Source: Microgenomates group bacterium (GTDB lineage: Bacteria > Patescibacteriota > Microgenomatia > UBA12405). Taken from it: a stretch of DNA of 64,000 nt. The translations under genes were made by a program, and so were the position numbers. Positions within the stretch are counted from its first letter, which is position 1. Every line of letters begins with the position of its first letter. The notes under the pieces are model-generated. The model was not told where the DNA came from. It saw only the letters and a program-made list of their open reading frames with translations, and did no database searches. This document shows positions 20,532-64,000 of the stretch, one piece after another. The stretch covers positions 278,994 to 342,993 of the forward strand of contig JBAQNJ010000001.1 of NCBI GenBank assembly GCA_049303675.1, read 5' to 3'.

Positions 20532-20603
20532 CCGGTGATAGCAAAGCGGTTATGCGTCGGTCTGTAAAACCGATCTAGGTAGGTTCAACTCCTACTCACC
20601 GGA
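20532..20603 (+). tRNA. tRNA-Tyr (anticodon GTA), class I, C1-G72
   Basis: Manual cloverleaf: acceptor CCGGTGA/TCACCGG, anticodon stem TCGGT/ACCGA, loop CTGTAAA, 5-nt variable loop, T arm GTAGG-TTCAACT-CCTAC, discriminator A. No encoded CCA. Promoter TGATATAAT at 20510-20518. Confidence 0.75.
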
Positions 20604-20613
20604 CATAATTTTA

Positions 20614-24119: not shown

Positions 24120-25618
24120 TGTACTAAGAGTTTGATCGTGGCTCAGGGTAAACGCTGGCGATGTGCCTAAGACATGCAAGTCGAACGGGATTCATTATCT
24201 TCACAAAGTTTCTAATTTTAGTGATTTTGTGAAGATAGTGAGTTTAGTGGCGAACGGGTGAGTAATGAGTACGAACGTACTCTCAAGCGGAACATAGCCC
24301 ACCGAAAGGTGGAGTAATTTTCCATAGTCTCGCAAGAGTAAAGATGCAAATCACTTGAGAAGCGGCGTACTTGCCACCAGCTAGTTGGTAGGGTAACGGC
24401 CTACCAAGGCTATAACGGCTAACGGCTCTTAGCGGAGAGTCCGTCACAATGGGACTGAGACACGGCCCATACTTCTACGGAAGGCAGCAGTTAGGAATCT
24501 TGCGCAATGGACGAAAGTCTGACGCAGCGACATCGCGTGAAGGATGAAGGCCCTCGGGTCGTAAACTTCTTTTATTGTGCCATGAAGGCATTTTGAATCA
24601 ACAGCTACTAACTACGTGCCAGCAGTCGCGGTAATACGTAGGCTGTAAGCGTTACCCGGTTTTATTGGGCGTAAAGCGTCTGTAGGTGGTTTTGTAAGTC
24701 TTGTTTCAAAGACCCCAGCTTAACTGGGGGCAGGGGCAGGATACTGCAAGACTAGAGTGATATCGGGGTTACTGGAATTTTTAGTGTAGGGGTAAAATCC
24801 GTGGATACTAAAAAGAACACCAAGCGCGAAGGCGGGTAACCAGGTATTTACTGACACTCAGAGACGAAAGCTAGGGTAGCCAATCAGATTAGAGACCTGA
24901 GTAGTCCTAGCTGTAAACTATGTATGTTAATTCTCTGTAATTTATTATGGGGGATGTAAGCTAACGCGTTAAACATACCGCCTGGGGAGTATAGCCGCAA
25001 GGCCGAAACTCAAACGAATTGGCGGGGAGGCGCACAACCAGTGGAGCATGTGGTTCAATTCGATACGAAGCGATGAACCTTACCTGGGTTTGAAATGTAT
25101 CTGCAAACCCCCAGAAACGGGGGAATCCTTAGAGGGTGATACACAGCTGTTGCATGGCTGTCGTCAGCTCGTGACGTGAGTTGTTCTCTTAAGTGAGGTA
25201 ACGAGCGCAACCCCCATCCGGTGTTATTGTGTCACCGGAGACTGCCTAGCATTATTTTGTTAGGAGGAAGGAGGGGACGACGTCAAGTCAGCATGATGCT
25301 TATGTCCAGGGCTACACACATCCTACAATGAGGAAGACAATGGGTCGCGAAACCGCGAGGTGGAGCCAATCCCACAAACTTCCTCTCAGTTGGGATTGCA
25401 GGCTGAAACTCGCCTGCATGAACCCGGAATTGGTAGTAATCGCGCATCAGCAGCGCGCGGTGAATACGTTCTCGCCTCTTGCACACACTGCCCGTCAAAT
25501 CAGCAAAGTTGAGGGCACCTGAAGCTTGGCCTTTGGCCGAATCAAGGTGAATTCAGCGATGAGGGTTAAGTCGTAACAAGGTATCTGTACTGGAAGGTGC
25601 AGATGGATCACCTCCTTT
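24120..25618 (+). rRNA. rrs: 16S ribosomal RNA (about 1.5 kb, no large insertion)
   Basis: AGAGTTTGATCGTGGCTCAG at 24127; GTGCCAGCAGTCGCGGTAATAC; AAGTCGTAACAAGGTA; 3' end GGATCACCTCCTTT. Confidence 0.95.
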
Positions 25619-25981: not shown

Positions 25982-26048
25982 ATTGAACTTATTCTCTCCC
26001 TCTCTCTTCTATAAGTCAAATTTTCCGATATTTTTAGTACAATCAACC

Positions 26049-36155: not shown

Positions 36156-36566
36156 ATGAGGTACTTCAATCGAGATTCACTCGACTACGAGTTCAAAGAC
36201 AAGTACGAAGCAGGCCTCGTCCTCACTGGTTCTGATGCCAAATCTCTCCGGACTCAGGGAGTCCTCTTCAATGGCTCCAAAATCGAGATAATTGATGGTA
36301 TTCCTACAGTTTTCAATCTGACTATCGAGCCCTACAAGTATTCCCAAAACCAATCGATCGACACCACTCGGGAACGAAAAATCTTATTATCGCAGAGGGA
36401 AATAGCCAAGTTAATTAGTCTCCGCAATCAAAAATATATGATCATCCCCATCAGTATATTTTTGAAGCACAATTGGTTCAAAATGGAAATTGGTGTCGGC
36501 CGCAAGCTCCGCAAATACGAAAAAAGAGAAAAAATCAAAGCCAAGGATTCTCTACGTCACTCCTAA
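36156..36566 (+). CDS. smpB: SsrA-binding protein SmpB
   Basis: EFKDKYEAGLVLTGSDAKSLR...RERKILLSQREIAKL...GRKLRKYEKREKIK matches the SmpB pattern. Confidence 0.85.
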   Translation: MRYFNRDSLDYEFKDKYEAGLVLTGSDAKSLRTQGVLFNGSKIEIIDGIPTVFNLTIEPYKYSQNQSIDTTRERKILLSQREIAKLISLRNQKYMIIPISIFLKHNWFKMEIGVGRKLRKYEKREKIKAKDSLRHS

Positions 36567-39212: not shown

Positions 39213-39243
39213 AAAAACGCGCCTTTGTATACACAAAAGCGCG
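39213..39243 (-). terminator. Intrinsic terminator downstream of tmRNA
   Basis: On the minus strand, an interrupted CGCGC/GCGCG + TTTGT/ACAAA hairpin is followed by TTTTT. Confidence 0.6.
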
Positions 39244-39247
39244 CGCA

Positions 39248-39678
39248 GGAGGAGATGCTCGGTATTGAGCCGAGGTCCAAAGTGGACTATAAAAAACGTC
39301 TACAAGCTTAATTTACTTTATCCTACACTTTCAACAACTAAAGTAAACGAAAAGTGTTGAAATGTCGATTATTGAGGGCATTACCCCTCTCTTAAATCCA
39401 CGATCTAATCGAGAAGATCGGGACAGCATTCTAGTTTAATTTACACTAGCTAGTCTTCTCTAGAAAAGGGGACTAACTAATGGATGATTCTGTTTAGGCA
39501 AGAGCCCAAACAGGAGCCTTAGAAGCTAGAGCGCCTTTTACAGCGTTTGCAACTTTGGTTAAATCAACACCAAAAGTATTTTTGGCATGTTTGTTTTTGA
39601 CCCTGTTTAACGACTCAATGGATCAAAGTCGGCTTGCGGTTTTTTAAGGTACTCACCTTGTCGATGCAATACATCTCC
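39248..39678 (-). ncRNA. ssrA: tmRNA (SsrA), one-piece
   Basis: Minus strand. 5' GGAGATGTATTGCATCGACAAGG (compare E. coli GGGGCTGATTCTGGATTCGACGGG). 3' GGAC-CTCGG-CTCAATA-CCGAG-CATCTCC-TCC is a T-arm plus acceptor. Tag ORF GTT-GCAAACGCT... (resume codon 39550-39548, stop 39496-39494) encodes ANAVKGALASKAPVWALA. smpB lies 2.7 kb away. Confidence 0.75.
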
Positions 39679-39720
39679 AAGTTATAGAACTACATATTCT
39701 ACCAATAATCAGCCCAAAAA

Positions 39721-40059
39721 TCAACCTTTTTTGTAAAACCTACTTACAGGTTTTACATTTTTCGGAAGAATTTCTCTGGAGACCACATCCCCAGGTCTAA
39801 AATTATCACCTTCAACTACAACTGATATAACTGGTCTATAACAAGCGAAATCTTCTTTTTTCCATACCAACACTTTTCCGAGAGACAATGTTTGTCTCAC
39901 CGGCCTACCATTTTCAAAAGATGTCCCCGTTCCAATTACTTCTATAGTTTTTTCGAGTGCACGCTCCATAATTCCGTCATCCATTCCTGCCAATTTTCCT
40001 TCTCGTTCCCACTTGTCCCATTGAGCTCTATTTTTAGGATTTGCTTTTGATTCATTCAT
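39721..40059 (-). CDS. Hypothetical protein
   Basis: Start moved to ATG 40059 (TGATATAAT-TTGATT-ATG). Confidence 0.4.
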   Translation of the reverse strand: MNESKANPKNRAQWDKWEREGKLAGMDDGIMERALEKTIEVIGTGTSFENGRPVRQTLSLGKVLVWKKEDFACYRPVISVVVEGDNFRPGDVVSREILPKNVKPVSRFYKKG

Positions 40060-41039: not shown

Positions 41040-41666
41040 ATGTCTCTTCTATTCGATCTTCTCTTTCCCCGTACCTGCGCCGGCTGTGGTCGAGTCGGCC
41101 ACTATCTTTGTCGGGATTGTCAGTCAAAACTTGTTTATCAAAGTGTTTATCAAAACAATCGTCTCTCTCTGTTTCGTTATCATGGTGCCATCAAGCAATT
41201 AATTACCGATCTCAAATTTAGCTTTGTCAGCGATATTGTCCCTGAAATAGGGGACATTCTGGTTTACGGGCTAGTCAACAAATATCCCCACCTTCTTCGC
41301 TATTGGCAGCAAAATAATTATATTTTAGTCCCTATTCCCCTTTATGAATCTCGCCACAATTGGCGCGGATACAATCAATCAGAATTGTTATGTCAAAAAT
41401 TATCAGCCGAATTAAACCTATCCTACGAACCAAATCTATTGGTCCGCACTCGCAACACCATCCCCCAGACTAGTATTCGCGACCGCCGCCTTCGTAAAAC
41501 CAACATCAATTCTTCATTTTCGTTTCGTTCCGATTTATTAAATTCTGTTAAATTATTAAATTTTATTATTGTAGACGACGTCTACACCACCGGTTCCACC
41601 ATTCATTCTGCTGCTTCCGCTTTTCCTAGAGGCTCAAATCTCTGGGCTCTCACAATAGCTGGATAG
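41040..41666 (+). CDS. comF: ComF family phosphoribosyltransferase-domain protein
   Basis: N-terminal CAGCG....CRDC zinc-finger-like motif and C-terminal IIVDDVYTTGSTI PRTase motif. Confidence 0.75.
   Translation: MSLLFDLLFPRTCAGCGRVGHYLCRDCQSKLVYQSVYQNNRLSLFRYHGAIKQLITDLKFSFVSDIVPEIGDILVYGLVNKYPHLLRYWQQNNYILVPIPLYESRHNWRGYNQSELLCQKLSAELNLSYEPNLLVRTRNTIPQTSIRDRRLRKTNINSSFSFRSDLLNSVKLLNFIIVDDVYTTGSTIHSAASAFPRGSNLWALTIAG
41534..41567 (+). repeat. 34-nt AT-rich repeat, copy 1 (inside comF)
   Basis: TTTATTAAATTCTGTTAAATTATTAAATTTTATT is identical to 43577-43610. Translated as LLNSVKLLNFI just before the PRTase motif. Confidence 0.9.
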
Positions 41667-46490: not shown

Positions 46491-46497
46491 TCTTAGA

Positions 46498-46565
46498 GTG
46501 TTTAGAAGACCCTTAGGGGTTGACAACCGAGTCCGCCAAATGGTCCACGGTGCCCACTAAAACAC
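46498..46565 (+). promoter_or_regulatory. Structured metK 5' leader, candidate SAM-I/IV-like riboswitch
   Basis: Closing helix GTGTTTAG...CTAAAACAC encloses ACCC-TTA-GGGT, GACAACC, CCG...CGG and GGTGCCC (compare the SAM-I/IV core GGCAACC...GGUGCC). Followed by CCTT...AAGG around the SD. Confidence 0.35.
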
Positions 46566-46589
46566 GCCTTATCAATTAAAAGGAAAAAT

Positions 46590-47690
46590 ATGAATTATCC
46601 TCAATTTTCGTCCGAATCTGTCTGTGAAGGTCACCCCGACAAAGTCTGTGACCAAATTAGTGATGCTATCTTAGACGCTGCCTATACCCTCGACCCTATG
46701 GCTCGGGTCGCTATCGAGACTTTGGCTACGGTCAACAAATTAGTTTTAGCCGGAGAAGTTACTATTAATGGTACTCTCGATTATGCCGCTATTGCCCGCC
46801 AAAAGATCGCCGAGCTCGATTTTCTCGATTCAGTTTTAGATTTTACCGACAAATGCGACATCGAAATTGCTGTCCACACACAGTCACCCGATATTGCTCA
46901 GGGCGTCAATGCTGGTGGAGCCGGTGATCAGGGGATGATGTTTGGTTATGCTTGTCGCGAGACACCCGAACTAATGCCCCTTCCCATTTCCATGGCTCAC
47001 AAATTATGCCGTCAAATGGACGAATTACAGCGCATTCATCGTTGGATGCGCCCCGATGGCAAGTCTCAGGTTACCGTTCGTTATGATGGTCAGACTCCGG
47101 TAGCCATCGAGCGAGTTGTCTTGGCCAAGCCCATGAATTACGACCTCGCCCCTGCTGATTATTCTCACTTTTTCTATCAAAATGTCATTGTTCCAGTCTT
47201 AGCTGAATACAAGTTTGAAATCAGTGAAGACAAAATGATTCTCAATGGTACCGGTAAATGGACCATTGGTGGCCCCTCCGCCGATACTGGCGTTACTGGC
47301 CGCAAAATTGTCGTTGATACTTACGGTGGTATGGGTCGTATTGGTGGTGGTTGCTTTTCCGGCAAGGATACTACCAAGGTCGATCGCAGTGCCGCCTACG
47401 CCGCTCGCTATATTGCCAAAAATATTGTGGCTGCAGGTCTCGCCGATCGCTGCGAGGTTCAATTAGCCTATGCTATTGGTCAAGTCCTGCCTGTTGGTCA
47501 ATCTATTGAGACTTTTGGCACTGCCAAGTCAGAATTAAAGGTAATCGAAGATTTTGCATGGAAATTACTCGAATTATCGGTCGCTGGTATCAACAGTGGT
47601 CTCAATCTCCGCGTGCCAATGTATGCCAAAACCGCCCGCTATGGCCACTTTGGCCATCCCGAGTATCCATGGGAGAAGATAAAAGGCTAA
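46590..47690 (+). CDS. metK: S-adenosylmethionine synthetase
   Basis: SESVCEGHPDKVCDQISDAILDA, GAGDQGMMFGYA and DTYGG motifs. Confidence 0.95.
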   Translation: MNYPQFSSESVCEGHPDKVCDQISDAILDAAYTLDPMARVAIETLATVNKLVLAGEVTINGTLDYAAIARQKIAELDFLDSVLDFTDKCDIEIAVHTQSPDIAQGVNAGGAGDQGMMFGYACRETPELMPLPISMAHKLCRQMDELQRIHRWMRPDGKSQVTVRYDGQTPVAIERVVLAKPMNYDLAPADYSHFFYQNVIVPVLAEYKFEISEDKMILNGTGKWTIGGPSADTGVTGRKIVVDTYGGMGRIGGGCFSGKDTTKVDRSAAYAARYIAKNIVAAGLADRCEVQLAYAIGQVLPVGQSIETFGTAKSELKVIEDFAWKLLELSVAGINSGLNLRVPMYAKTARYGHFGHPEYPWEKIKG

Positions 47691-60184: not shown

Positions 60185-60257
60185 GGGTGGATAGTTCAGT
60201 TGGTTAGAATGCTGGTCCCCAAAACCGGCGACAATGGTTCAAGTCCATTTCCACCCA
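60185..60257 (+). tRNA. tRNA-Trp (anticodon CCA), G1-C72, A73
   Basis: Manual cloverleaf: acceptor GGGTGGA/TCCACCC, D arm GTTC-AGTTGGTTA-GAAT, anticodon stem CTGGT/ACCGG, loop CCCCAAA, T arm AATGG-TTCAAGT-CCATT, discriminator A. No encoded CCA. Confidence 0.85.
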
Positions 60258-60259
60258 CT

Positions 60260-61222
60260 ATGATTAATTATAATCTGACAGTAGATAGGATAAAAAACAG
60301 CCTGCAAAACGGGAGATGTTTCTATGGTGAAACCTATGATTCTCATGGCATGACAATTGACTCTCTAAAGTACTATTTTTTCTTATCTCTACTACATCTG
60401 ATATTAGCTAAATCAAATATCAAAACTGAGTCGACGGTGATAATCGCCGATATTGCCTCGGGTATCAACAAATCTAGTCAAAAAATAAATTGCGATATAG
60501 ATGAGGTGGGGAAAAATCGTCTAGATTATTGTGAAAAAATAAAAAAATATTTTAATTTACCTATCAAGTTTGTTTTAATGAGCAACTTTTTTGCCACCAA
60601 TCCCATTGCAAAACTAGTTGAACAATTCGAAAATGTTGGTCATAGCAACCCCAAAGTGACTGAACTTTTAGCAAAAACAGTACTCCAAAATAAAATTAAA
60701 CAAGAAAATGATTCGGGCTTTCGTTATGGTTATGAAGAAATTGCTACCGGATCATTTTTTAATATCAAAATTGGCCCACCGCGAGAAAAATATTACGACC
60801 AAGCCGCCAAAATTATTTGCAAAAAATTAAAACTGAATCAATTAAAAAGTATTTATCTGACACCCACGTTTCCTTTGGGTCAAGATTTTTCCTATTTCCT
60901 AACTCACCCCGAAATAGAAGAATTTGGACTTACACCATACAAAGCCGGTAGTAACCAAATGCAGGATTTCAGAATAACTATAAATACAACCACGATAGAA
61001 AAAGTTGAGCAACTAATCAACGATACTTACATCACTACTAATCCAAATTTACCAAATCCAATATTTGATTTACTGTTTATTGCCAATATGGCAGAAAAGT
61101 TAAAAAACAAAGAATATGAGTTTCCAGTTTACAAAAATAATATTTATATAAATCCAAAAAAACTAAAGAGTTTTGCTTTCCAGAAAATAACTAGGTTATT
61201 GATTGATCTAAAAAATCTATGA
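60260..61222 (+). CDS. Degenerate class Ic aminoacyl-tRNA-synthetase-like protein (TyrRS/TrpRS fold, HIGH and KMSKS lost)
   Basis: By-eye alignment to trpS and archaeal TyrRS: FYGETYDSHGMTIDS (HIGH region), TVIIADIASGIN, IKFVLMSNF, IKIGPPREKYYDQAAKII (compare PVGIDQHPYILLARDVAKKI), IYLTPTFPLG. ATG 2 nt after the tRNA; the track start at 60200 lies inside the tRNA. Confidence 0.45.
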   Translation: MINYNLTVDRIKNSLQNGRCFYGETYDSHGMTIDSLKYYFFLSLLHLILAKSNIKTESTVIIADIASGINKSSQKINCDIDEVGKNRLDYCEKIKKYFNLPIKFVLMSNFFATNPIAKLVEQFENVGHSNPKVTELLAKTVLQNKIKQENDSGFRYGYEEIATGSFFNIKIGPPREKYYDQAAKIICKKLKLNQLKSIYLTPTFPLGQDFSYFLTHPEIEEFGLTPYKAGSNQMQDFRITINTTTIEKVEQLINDTYITTNPNLPNPIFDLLFIANMAEKLKNKEYEFPVYKNNIYINPKKLKSFAFQKITRLLIDLKNL

Positions 61223-62385
61223 ATAGCCCACAGGCAATTGCCCAATCACATCAAGAATATCAATCTAAATTAACTATCAAGAAAAAAATTGGGGATTATT
61301 ACTTGGATCAAACCACCAAAAATGGTCTCTCTAGCCTTGATAAAATTAAGGCCTATTTACCTCTTGATCTACAGCCACTTCATTTTCGACGCAGCATCGC
61401 TATCGCCCATCTTGATCTTGAACCAATCATCGAAAAAATTGCCAAGAATCAGGAGTTTGTTATTGTTTCCGGTCTCAATCCGTCTTCTCCCTTACACCTC
61501 GGTCATAAGGCCCTGTTTGATTTACTCCTAAGTTTACAAGGACTAGGAGCCAGAGTATTTATTCCTCTGACCAACGACGAGTCGCTAGTTGATGGTAAGG
61601 TTAGTTCTTTGGCTCAGAGTCTAAACATTGCCAAAACCTCAATTCTCCCCGACATTATCAATTTTGGATTTGATCCGGACAAAACCCATATTTTTATTGA
61701 CTCCGAATATCCCCAGCTCTACAACTTCGCTATGTATCTCAGCCAACATATTTCCTTTGGACAACTTCGTCAAGTCTTTGGTGACGATTCACTGACTACT
61801 CCTGGCCAAATTTTTTATCGTGGAGTCGTTCAAATGGCGCAGATCCTGTTACCCCAACTCCCTGAATTTGGTGGTCCAAAAGTGACTTTGATTCCAGTTG
61901 GTATTGACCAGCACCCATATATATTATTGGCTCGTGATGTTGCCAAAAAAATTGGTATGATTCCACCGTCTGAGTTGGTTATTAGATTCTTGCCTAGCTT
62001 ACTAGGGCCAGAAGATAAAATGTCGGCATCAAAACCAAACACTGCTATTTACCTTAGTGACACTCCAGAGGCAATTCACAAAAAAATTAGTCGAGCCTAT
62101 ACCGGTGCTGTTTCAGCCCTTGATGTATATCAAGAACGGGGTGGTATTCCCGAAATATGCTCAGTTTTTACTCTTCTAAATTTTCATCATCCCGACGGTG
62201 TATTTGTCGAAAATATTAAACAAAGTTATTTGCATGGTCTTATTACCATGTCTGAGTTGAAAGAACTTACAACAGCTTTTATTACCGAATTAGTCACCCG
62301 CCACCAGCAAAAAAGCCCGCCTACCTCTGATCAAATCAATAAGTACATTTTAACTACACCATTAAAATCACTTTTAACCCTATGA
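61219..62385 (+). CDS. trpS: Tryptophanyl-tRNA synthetase, archaeal/eukaryal type
   Basis: PSSPLHLGH (HIGH), IPVGIDQHPY, KMSAS (KMSKS) and GGIPEIC. ATGA overlap with the upstream ORF. Confidence 0.9.
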   Translation: MNSPQAIAQSHQEYQSKLTIKKKIGDYYLDQTTKNGLSSLDKIKAYLPLDLQPLHFRRSIAIAHLDLEPIIEKIAKNQEFVIVSGLNPSSPLHLGHKALFDLLLSLQGLGARVFIPLTNDESLVDGKVSSLAQSLNIAKTSILPDIINFGFDPDKTHIFIDSEYPQLYNFAMYLSQHISFGQLRQVFGDDSLTTPGQIFYRGVVQMAQILLPQLPEFGGPKVTLIPVGIDQHPYILLARDVAKKIGMIPPSELVIRFLPSLLGPEDKMSASKPNTAIYLSDTPEAIHKKISRAYTGAVSALDVYQERGGIPEICSVFTLLNFHHPDGVFVENIKQSYLHGLITMSELKELTTAFITELVTRHQQKSPPTSDQINKYILTTPLKSLLTL

Positions 62386-63527: not shown

Positions 63528-64000
63528 ATGATCGAACCAATTGTTCTTCAAAATAATCAAACACTCGCAAAACTTGGCATTGAATATACCAACCTCGAGC
63601 ATCCACCCATCAAAGAAATCTTTGATTGTATGCGTTTTCTTGGTCTGCCCATTTCCGAAGGTTTTTCCACCCTTATCATGAAGGCTGATGATCGCTATGT
63701 GGCCATCATCCGTCGCGATGATTGTAAATTAGACTTAAACAAAGCCTGTAAGGTAATTGGCTGCTCCAAATTAAATTTAGCATCCCCCGACGAGTTTGAA
63801 GCCTTAACCCACTTACCTTCCGGAGCCGCTTTCGTCGTTAATTCAGGAATAAAAACATATCTCGACCAAAAGCTATTCGATAAAGAATACCTAATTGGTG
63901 GATCAGGCAGTTTGTCAGTCAGTAACAAATACCGTTCCGTTGACCTCAAAAAAATACCCGACAGCATCATTGTCGATATTGCTGATATTAAGGCAAAACA
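63528..64000 (+). CDS. YbaK/ProX-like aminoacyl-tRNA deacylase domain protein; 3' end beyond window
   Basis: Not in the ORF track because it runs off the end. Manual translation MIEPIVLQNNQTLAKLGIEYTNLEHPPIKEIFDC...STLIMKADDRYVAIIRRDDCKLDLNKA...LPSGAAFVVNSG...LIGGSGSL fits the YbaK/EbsC editing-domain pattern. Confidence 0.6.
   Translation, partial: MIEPIVLQNNQTLAKLGIEYTNLEHPPIKEIFDCMRFLGLPISEGFSTLIMKADDRYVAIIRRDDCKLDLNKACKVIGCSKLNLASPDEFEALTHLPSGAAFVVNSGIKTYLDQKLFDKEYLIGGSGSLSVSNKYRSVDLKKIPDSIIVDIADIKAK

Follow-up and report, generated by a model that had tools for sequence, protein, structure and literature searches.

The transfer-messenger RNAs (tmRNAs) described so far follow one rule for aminoacylation: their third acceptor pair is completely conserved as G-U, and G3·U70 together with the discriminator A73 is always present (PMC3985003, PMC5041485). 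Both features also belong to the bacterial alanine identity set, which comprises A73, G2-C71, G3·U70, G4-C69 and G20 (PMC9976931, Table 1), and replacement of the pair by A3-U70 abolishes alanylation in every non-organellar system tested (PMC9976931). The G3·U70 pair is the textbook case of a simple, universal tRNA identity rule and has served as an argument that the link between alanyl-tRNA synthetase (AlaRS) and tmRNA is ancient. Here, we describe a tmRNA that carries neither alanine mark. It is encoded in a 64-kb stretch of DNA (the window, meaning the whole stretch analysed) from an uncultivated groundwater bacterium, which its smpB relatives place in Candidatus Shapirobacteria (Microgenomates group, Patescibacteria or candidate phyla radiation [CPR]).

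A sequence-only reading of the window had placed a tmRNA at this locus and had taken G3·U70 as the conserved alanine hallmark of tmRNAs, a premise that agrees with the reviews cited above. The search with Rfam RF00023 returned a full-length match at 39247-39678 on the minus strand (82.5 bits, E 1.7e-30, gathering score 47, model positions 1-374, the full model). The parts of the gene that bear on its aminoacylation are as follows.

39248..39678, minus strand: tmRNA (ssrA) gene, defined with Rfam RF00023 and nhmmer; G1 is at 39678 and the encoded C75 at 39248.
39672..39678, minus strand: 5' strand of the acceptor stem, GGAGAUG; position 3, G in canonical tmRNAs, is A (39676).
39251..39257, minus strand: 3' strand of the acceptor stem, CAUCUCC; U70 is at 39253 (Rfam alignment).
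39250, minus strand: discriminator U73; canonical tmRNA and tRNA-Ala have A73.
39258..39274, minus strand: T arm CUCGG-CUCAAUA-CCGAG; position 54 of the non-canonical T loop is C.

In the Rfam alignment, GGAGAUG (39678-39672) pairs with CAUCUCC (39257-39251), giving seven Watson-Crick pairs that include A3-U70, with no G·U pair anywhere in the stem. U73 is followed by C74 and C75, and A76 is absent from the DNA, which has T at 39247. The tRNA-like domain contains a degenerate D loop and no D stem. The fully Watson-Crick acceptor stem, the discriminator U followed by CC and the T loop beginning with C had thus been read correctly from the letters. When other end points were tried, no alternative register yielded a G·U pair at 3:70; a one-base shift disrupts either the T stem or the pairing. 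A sequencing or assembly error at 39676 would also account for the missing pair, and the single-base nature of the difference is all that speaks for it. Over 531 nt that span the gene, an independent Logan assembly (run SRR28062869) matches the window at 100% identity, and the same state was found in 59 unique relatives from many studies, leaving an error with a probability close to negligible.

The SmpB relatives (60-87% identity) are encoded adjacent to tmRNA homologues. With the window tmRNA as query, nhmmer detected full-length homologues beside smpB in 23 of 27 Shapirobacteria loci, and a further 120 loci came from scanning metagenomes for a clade-specific 3' motif. Deduplication and manual checking of ambiguous cases left 80 unique full-length tmRNAs from GTDB genomes and JGI metagenomes. 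Three states were present among them: A3-U70 with U73 (30 sequences), A3-U70 with G73 (29) and G3·U70 with A73 (21). Mixed states did not occur (0/80), as A3 was never combined with A73 or C73, nor G3 with G73 or U73. The 21 alanine-type copies consist of 17 from outgroup Microgenomates and four of Shapirobacteria type; A3-U70 is carried by 59 of the 63 unique Shapirobacteria-type tmRNAs. All other tmRNAs examined, from Gottesmanbacteria-like genomes, Amesbacteria, Parcubacteria, Saccharibacteria, Saganbacteria/WOR-1 and Mycoplasma, have G3·U70 and A73. Loss of both alanine marks is specific to the Shapirobacteria clade. A3-type copies are up to ~85% identical to G3·U70 copies at the same locus, and by homology and orthology the deviant copies are still members of the tmRNA family, despite departing from G3·U70/A73.

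Two further features of individual relatives were seen. The tmRNA at L002:10988-11481 has two ~30-nt insertions compared to its relatives, one in the region of pseudoknot 1 (PK1) and one in the last pseudoknot region, and keeps the A3-U70/U73 ends. At L081:6333-6345 and L176:4008-4020, a GGGGAT hexamer stands immediately before the A3-type 5' end (GAGGGGAT, followed by GGAGAUG). The hexamer is the same as the start of the ancestral G3-type acceptor strand and may be due to chance or may be the footprint of a short duplication.

ARAGORN called no tmRNA in the window or in any of the 27 Shapirobacteria loci, and called one in many outgroup loci. In-silico mutagenesis attributed the miss to the combined penalties for the odd T loop and the deviant acceptor end: the unaltered window gave no call, whereas after in-silico edits the gene was called, with the same 18-codon tag as in the sequence-only reading. 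ARAGORN-based surveys would make tmRNA look absent from Shapirobacteria, since the program misses all these genes.

The tRNA-like domain was analysed in a reduced alignment of 43 distinct sequences with an RNAalifold consensus. Its cells are 99% paired, and the covariation score of 0.209 compares with 0.090 in shuffles (0/500 reach the observed value) and with at most 0.063 in slid controls. Compensatory changes occur in all five T-stem pairs and in the connector helix, for example, 27 double changes at a single pair. In the acceptor stem, six of the seven pairs do not vary among the 43 distinct relatives, among them G1-C72, G2-C71 and G4-C69 (43/43 each), and 3:70 is the only pair that varies (A-U in 39, G·U in four). 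The T loop (39263-39269, minus strand, in the window) is variable among the relatives, with CUCAAUA, UUCAUUA, GUCAUUC and AUCAUUC; any base may stand at position 54 and either A or U at position 58, and the usual T54-A58 pair is not kept. Because the outgroup tmRNA of L028 has CUCACUG, the T-loop deviation is older than the loss of G3·U70.

The remaining features of the gene and of its surroundings are listed below.

39275..39309, minus strand: 3' strand of the connector helix (H2), pairing with tmRNA nt 19-47 (39660-39632) according to the RNAalifold consensus and covariation.
39599..39633, minus strand: PK1 region (GCCGAC...GGGUC) in the Rfam alignment, highly conserved in sequence among relatives; the pairing is predicted.
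39494..39586 (stop included), minus strand: tag reading frame of 30 codons plus TAA, encoding AKNTFGVDLTKVANAVKGALASKAPVWALA; the resume codon GCC is at 39586-39584.
39696..39724, minus strand: TTGATT-17-TAGAAT with an extended -10 TG, a putative sigma-70-like promoter recognised solely by its match to the consensus.
39217..39244, minus strand: intrinsic terminator with a 12-bp stem and a T run, beginning 4 nt past C75.
36156..36566, plus strand: smpB, encoding the tmRNA protein partner of 136 aa (Pfam PF01668, E 4.4e-31).
41040..41666, plus strand: ComF-like gene (double zinc ribbon and phosphoribosyltransferase), used as synteny anchor.

The Rfam alignment spans the regions PK1-PK4, with low posterior probability in PK2-PK4. 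The putative promoter ends 18 nt upstream of G1, implying a short leader that would be cut off by RNase P. The smpB gene, 2.7 kb from the tmRNA gene, is intact, as had been thought.

The resume codon GCC corresponds to tmRNA nt 93-95 and lies 12 nt past PK1, which is the canonical position in the Rfam alignment. In all 54 unique anchored relatives (54/54), the anchored GCN codon opens an uninterrupted frame of 28-39 codons that ends with TAA. The N-terminus of the tag is conserved as a peptide, AK[NKS]xFGVDL..., starting with AK, AE or AN. At the other end, the tags terminate in (L/F/V)A or, in about a third of the 54 relatives, in Cys; the window tag ends with ...WALA-TAA. The comparison indicates that the window tag most likely comprises the 30 codons of AKNTFGVDLTKVANAVKGALASKAPVWALA. 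An 18-residue tag, ANAVKGALASKAPVWALA, had previously been proposed; its frame and stop codon were right, its start and length were probably wrong, and it most likely represents the C-terminal part of the longer tag. Tags ending with Cys instead of the usual Ala (...AAC, ATC, AVC, AYC, AFC, ANC, ASC) were found in 17 of the 54 Shapirobacteria tmRNAs, including those of L003, L004, L009, L010, L025, L026, L076, L077, L089, L108, L112, L113, L137, L145, L172 and others. The Amesbacteria tag (L029) is likewise Cys-ended (...GAIC).

Decay of the gene was one option left by the sequence-only reading. A pseudogene, or an uncharged RNA with another role, would fit the loss of both alanine determinants, the non-canonical T loop and the failure of ARAGORN to recognise the gene. 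The score penalties for acceptor end and T loop account for the last point. Conservation of the RNA extends over at least 63 unique sequences, with compensatory changes in T stem and connector and an acceptor stem that is invariant except at position 3; the tag frame is kept, always closes with TAA and typically has a hydrophobic-Ala end; smpB is intact and linked; and promoter and terminator are present. Because of this conserved, covarying RNA, the conserved tag frame, the linked smpB and the transcription signals, the gene appears to be functional and under strong purifying selection, and decay is extremely improbable. The tmRNA-SmpB system of the clade presents itself, on sequence comparison, as a deviant form that breaks a rule described as universal, with co-ordinated changes at three sites, each of them connected with aminoacylation and delivery by EF-Tu.

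Next, the history of the two states was considered. The ssrA gene is flanked by smpB on one side and by the ComF-like gene on the other, and the same arrangement is found in outgroup Microgenomates; the Shapirobacteria ssrA locus is orthologous to the canonical outgroup locus. The G3/A73 copies of Shapirobacteria type occupy the same smpB/comF locus. When columns 3 and 73 were left out of the tmRNA tree, Shapirobacteria-type sequences are monophyletic (94/100 bootstraps) and the deep branches are all A3. The four G3/A73 copies are nested in the A3 radiation and are never monophyletic in this tree, so that position 3 needs 4-6 changes. However, they are mutual nearest relatives in the tRNA-like domain and not in the central 320 nt. 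In the SmpB tree, the three G3 copies with smpB on the contig form a small nested clade together with one A3 genome; the G3 copies are monophyletic in 28/100 bootstraps, and position 3 needs 1-3 changes. Given this mosaicism test and the SmpB tree, the count of 4-6 independent changes is probably inflated. What the comparison robustly supports is a single loss at the root of the clade and one or more reversions, with positions 3 and 73 having moved together each time. Swaps between G73 and U73 are frequent and are seen even where the SmpB of two genomes is nearly identical; in the A3 background, position 73 is never A or C.

A swap of the tmRNA 3' end by an integrating element, which might have accounted for the altered discriminator and T stem, was considered and rejected. 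Displaced 3'-end copies, the signature of such elements, were looked for in the tmRNA flanks and none were found; in L024, smpB abuts the 3' end and leaves no room for an island.

The outgroup loci differ in gene content. In L028, L031, L072, L087, L094, L173, L174 and L181, the canonical tmRNA adjoins four tRNA-Ser and two tRNA-Arg genes, which are interleaved with the ComF-like gene, a small membrane protein gene (PF18923-like) and a NUDIX gene. At the Shapirobacteria ssrA locus, the ComF-like gene is the only one of these present, and the tRNA-Ser/tRNA-Arg cluster is absent. When the membrane protein of the outgroup cluster was used as an anchor, the matches belonged to Gottesmanbacteria and Woesebacteria, with no Shapirobacteria label among the 120 matches listed. 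A NUDIX gene near tRNA-Cys was rejected as a cluster anchor, as it is not an orthologue of the NUDIX gene of the outgroup cluster.

Which enzyme may charge such an RNA was addressed by comparison with known identity sets. According to Table 1 of PMC9976931, the only bacterial identities without anticodon determinants are Ala, Ser and Leu. Leucyl-tRNA synthetase (LeuRS) requires A73 (PMC9976931, Table 1) and is an unlikely candidate, because A73 is absent from the A3 tmRNAs. The bacterial serine set comprises G73, C72, G2-C71, R4-Y69, C11-G24 and a large variable region (PMC9976931, Table 1); the seryl-tRNA synthetase (SerRS) of E. coli can do without G73 in vitro, and in vivo the base serves as an antideterminant against both LeuRS and tyrosyl-tRNA synthetase (TyrRS) (PMC9976931). 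The connector helix of tmRNA is reported to project in the manner of a class II variable arm (Bessho 2007, cited in PMC3985003). Judged by the alanine set, the window tmRNA retains G2-C71 and G4-C69 and lacks both G3·U70 and A73. Judged by the serine set, C72, G2-C71 and R4-Y69 are present but are shared by canonical tmRNAs and thus do not discriminate; G73 is absent from the window tmRNA, which has U73, and present in 29 of the 59 A3 relatives. Among 54 unique CPR tRNA-Ser genes, G1-C72 was found in 52, G2-C71 in 54, A3-U70 in 37, G4-C69 in 50 and G73 in 52. In one of these tRNAs (GGAGACG/CGUCUCC-G), all acceptor pairs but one are those of the tmRNA.

On these grounds, we lean, by a modest measure, towards a switch of identity that takes the tmRNA away from AlaRS, and SerRS is the foremost, though unproven, candidate. 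It comes first because, among bacterial synthetases, only AlaRS, LeuRS and SerRS disregard the anticodon, and because G1-C72, G2-C71, A3-U70 and G4-C69, with G73 in half of the sequences, correspond to the modal acceptor end of CPR tRNA-Ser. In the proposed mechanism, the tmRNA would work with SmpB in ordinary trans-translation, adding a tag of ~31 residues. A single G-to-A change, converting G3·U70 to A3-U70, would remove the alanine mark, so that the A3 form would no longer be an AlaRS substrate; the change of A73 to G or U would avoid LeuRS. Another synthetase, with SerRS as the leading candidate, would attach another amino acid, which would become the first residue of the tag. Discriminator and T stem would follow position 3, the T stem being retuned to weaker predicted binding of EF-Tu. 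The single G/A transition at position 3 would thereby toggle between identity sets, and at least one lineage would have gone back to the full alanine set. The sequences themselves show the two states, how they are coupled, and their conservation, orthology and restriction to the clade; that the tmRNA is aminoacylated, by which enzyme and with which amino acid, we infer from them.

The T stem was analysed because the strength with which EF-Tu binds an aminoacyl-tRNA is set by the T-stem pairs 49:65, 50:64 and 51:63, which offset the contribution of the esterified amino acid (PMC3239215). The T-stem score is the summed change in binding free energy (ddG) of these three pairs, calculated with the per-pair values of Schrader and Uhlenbeck (PMC3239215). 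Each of the four revertants scores -0.2 and the seven outgroup G3/A73 tmRNAs average -0.24, compared to +0.48 in the U73 forms (n=30, 0.0 to 0.9) and +0.62 in the G73 forms (n=29, 0.0 to 1.2) of A3 tmRNAs; the window tmRNA scores +0.5. Predicted EF-Tu binding is thus ~0.7 kcal/mol weaker in the A3 forms. The shift holds across many different T-stem sequences. G51-C63 is present in 4/4 revertants versus 4/59 A3 forms. A strict link of T-stem sequence to G73 versus U73 was also considered; it is weak, and the contrast holds only between alanine-type and A3-type sequences. The direction of the shift is the one predicted by thermodynamic compensation for different amino acids and would be hard to explain if both types carried alanine, which suggests, within the limits of the model, that they do not.

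Several points weigh against a serine identity or against a switch as such. U73 is found in half of the A3 tmRNAs, including that of the window, and in 0/54 of the CPR tRNA-Ser genes. The tRNA-like domain has no D stem and so lacks the serine determinant C11-G24. The mean T-stem score of CPR tRNA-Ser (-0.14) is like that of alanine-type tmRNAs and unlike that of A3 tmRNAs (+0.5 to +0.6). Calculated bacterial class means for Ser, -10.1 to -10.3, are similar to those for Ala (PMC3239215), and the only values that fit serine are those measured in E. coli, -11.0 for tRNA-Ala and -9.6 for tRNA-Ser (PMC3239215). Applying the three-pair EF-Tu model to tmRNA is an extrapolation from tRNA, with few independent events and no phylogenetic correction, and the coupled changes at positions 3 and 73 are themselves few in number as independent events. 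A tblastn search with E. coli AlaRS and SerRS queries produced no match in the ~1.3 Mb of DNA searched. An AlaRS gene was sought within the 64-kb window and none was found, and extension of the source contig by ~8 kb on each side revealed only tRNA-Ile, tRNA-Met and tRNA-Cys, with no tRNA-Ala or tRNA-Ser.

To the same side of the balance belongs what speaks for continued alanylation. AlaRS could still recognise the A3-U70 tmRNA via other features, perhaps with the help of SmpB or of its own C-terminal domain. It is the ancestral and otherwise universal tmRNA synthetase (PMC3985003, PMC5041485), mitochondrial AlaRS systems manage with an absent or translocated G·U (PMC9976931), and the minor alanine determinants G2-C71 and G4-C69 are kept and invariant. 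Moreover, AlaRS and tRNA-Ala of the lineage were not recovered in the fetched DNA, and an unusual AlaRS is conceivable. However, G3·U70 and A73 were lost together, and A73 is excluded in 59/59 A3 sequences, for which there would be no reason in an AlaRS substrate. Canonical G3·U70/A73 tmRNAs reappear within the clade, suggesting that AlaRS kept its normal specificity and arguing against a clade-wide change of the enzyme. The different EF-Tu set-point of the two states would be unexpected if both carried alanine, and A3-U70 abolishes alanylation in all non-organellar systems tested (PMC9976931). Continued charging by AlaRS is therefore a possible but distinctly less probable explanation.

Editing of the transcript would also keep the RNA an AlaRS substrate. 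If A3 were converted to inosine, for example, I3·U70 would restore the wobble, since I·U has the same geometry as G·U. Such editing would leave the loss of A73 and the shift in the T stem unexplained. To our knowledge, no enzyme edits position 3 of tRNA-like acceptor stems. In addition, inosine has no 2-amino group, and work by Musier-Forsyth from 1991 reportedly found this group of G3 to be indispensable for E. coli AlaRS. We regard editing as very improbable.

The exclusive use of G or U at position 73, with frequent flips, may also point to an enzyme other than AlaRS and SerRS, or to a dedicated paralogue, which would read the keto base at position 73 and attach an amino acid that binds EF-Tu more tightly than Ala or Ser. 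The T-stem score of the A3 forms, which is weaker than in both alanine-type tmRNAs and CPR tRNA-Ser, and the absence of U73 from all CPR tRNA-Ser are in line with this. On the other hand, the remaining bacterial synthetases whose substrates have G73 or U73 (those for Asn, Asp, Gln, Trp, Cys and Gly) rely heavily on the anticodon or on acceptor pairs missing in the tmRNA (PMC9976931, Table 1), and no candidate gene was seen near the tmRNA locus, which makes such an enzyme unlikely.

Overall, we prefer another synthetase and another amino acid to alanine, because A73 was lost with position 3, the T stem shifts and canonical copies reappear. "Not alanine" is suggested more strongly than "serine". 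If weighed as a whole, the evidence tips slightly towards the Shapirobacteria tmRNAs being the first natural non-alanine acceptors, charged by SerRS or another non-alanine synthetase and toggling between two identity sets. No prior report of a tmRNA without G3·U70, or of a tmRNA in Microgenomates, was present in the literature searched, outside of which most subscription journals lie.

A whole clade that lacks both marks and nevertheless has a strongly conserved tmRNA-SmpB system shows that the G3·U70/A73 rule is not universal. It also offers a natural experiment on identity switching in a substrate without an anticodon, with two states, no intermediates, at least one reversion and apparent retuning towards EF-Tu. 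If the preferred reading is true, trans-translation in Shapirobacteria would start the tag with a different amino acid.

Other features of the window were noted in passing. The tRNA-Tyr(GUA) at 20532-20604 (plus strand) is 73 nt long and has a short variable arm, C1-G72 and A73, which is the archaeal/eukaryal type; the bacterial norm is a long variable arm and G1-C72 (PMC9976931). The same type of tRNA-Tyr is present at L007:667-739 and L019:35-107. The tRNA-Trp(CCA) at 60185-60258 (plus strand) has G1-C72 and A73, the archaeal/eukaryal tryptophan set, the bacterial set being A1-U72 with G73 (PMC9976931, Table 1). Two class Ic synthetase genes (PF00579, the family of TyrRS and tryptophanyl-tRNA synthetase) adjoin this tRNA gene, one at 61219-62385 and the other at 63528-64000 and beyond (L185:12310-13773, 487 aa). 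One of the two has an N-terminal YbaK/ProX-type tRNA_edit domain (PF04073), an unusual fusion. The 16S rRNA gene at 24120-25618 (plus strand) stands alone, being followed by a protein gene at 25983 and by neither a tRNA nor a 23S rRNA gene; the rRNA genes are thus unlinked. A SAM-I/IV riboswitch match at 46493-46599 (plus strand) scores 41.1 bits, exactly the gathering score, and lies directly upstream of an S-adenosylmethionine synthetase gene (46590-47690). GC skew is uniformly and strongly negative, with values of -0.04 to -0.36 in each 4-kb bin, the plus strand being C-rich across the 64 kb.

Compared to canonical SsrA/SmpB (RF00023, for example, of E. coli), the system has the same 7-bp acceptor stem, T arm, degenerate D loop, long connector helix and PK1, a resume codon ~12 nt past PK1, a tag ending in ...ALA and a stop codon, and a linked smpB. 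With the canonical SsrA of neighbouring CPR lineages it is homologous and syntenic. It differs in having A3-U70 for G3·U70, U or G for A73, a T stem with weaker predicted EF-Tu binding and a non-canonical T loop, and in the long tag of Shapirobacteria (28-39 codons), which has a Cys end in about a third of cases.

The His-charged tmRNA of a 1999 study works in vitro, as cited in PMC3985003. As described there, a non-alanine tmRNA can join trans-translation, and alanine is thus not mechanistically required. That RNA was designed in vitro with histidine determinants, whereas the one described here is natural and clade-wide, with A3-U70 and G or U at position 73. Natural loss of G3·U70 is also known from the mitochondrial tRNA-Ala/AlaRS pairs (G2·U71 in Drosophila, 5:68 in human mitochondria; PMC9976931). 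Unlike the bacterial tmRNA, these are organellar, have a co-evolved AlaRS and mostly retain a G·U elsewhere in the stem; the Shapirobacteria tmRNA has no acceptor G·U at all, has lost A73 as well and has canonical revertants within its clade.

Finally, with bacterial class II tRNA-Ser the tmRNA would share anticodon-independent recognition, and it has the same G1-C72, G2-C71, modal A3-U70 and G4-C69, along with G73 in about half of the A3 sequences. The long arm that projects from the core of these tRNAs is mimicked by the tmRNA connector helix (PMC3985003). Unlike tRNA-Ser, the tmRNA lacks a D stem (and with it C11-G24) as well as a genuine variable arm; U73, carried by half of the A3 sequences, occurs in none of the sampled CPR tRNA-Ser, and the T-stem EF-Tu score is different.

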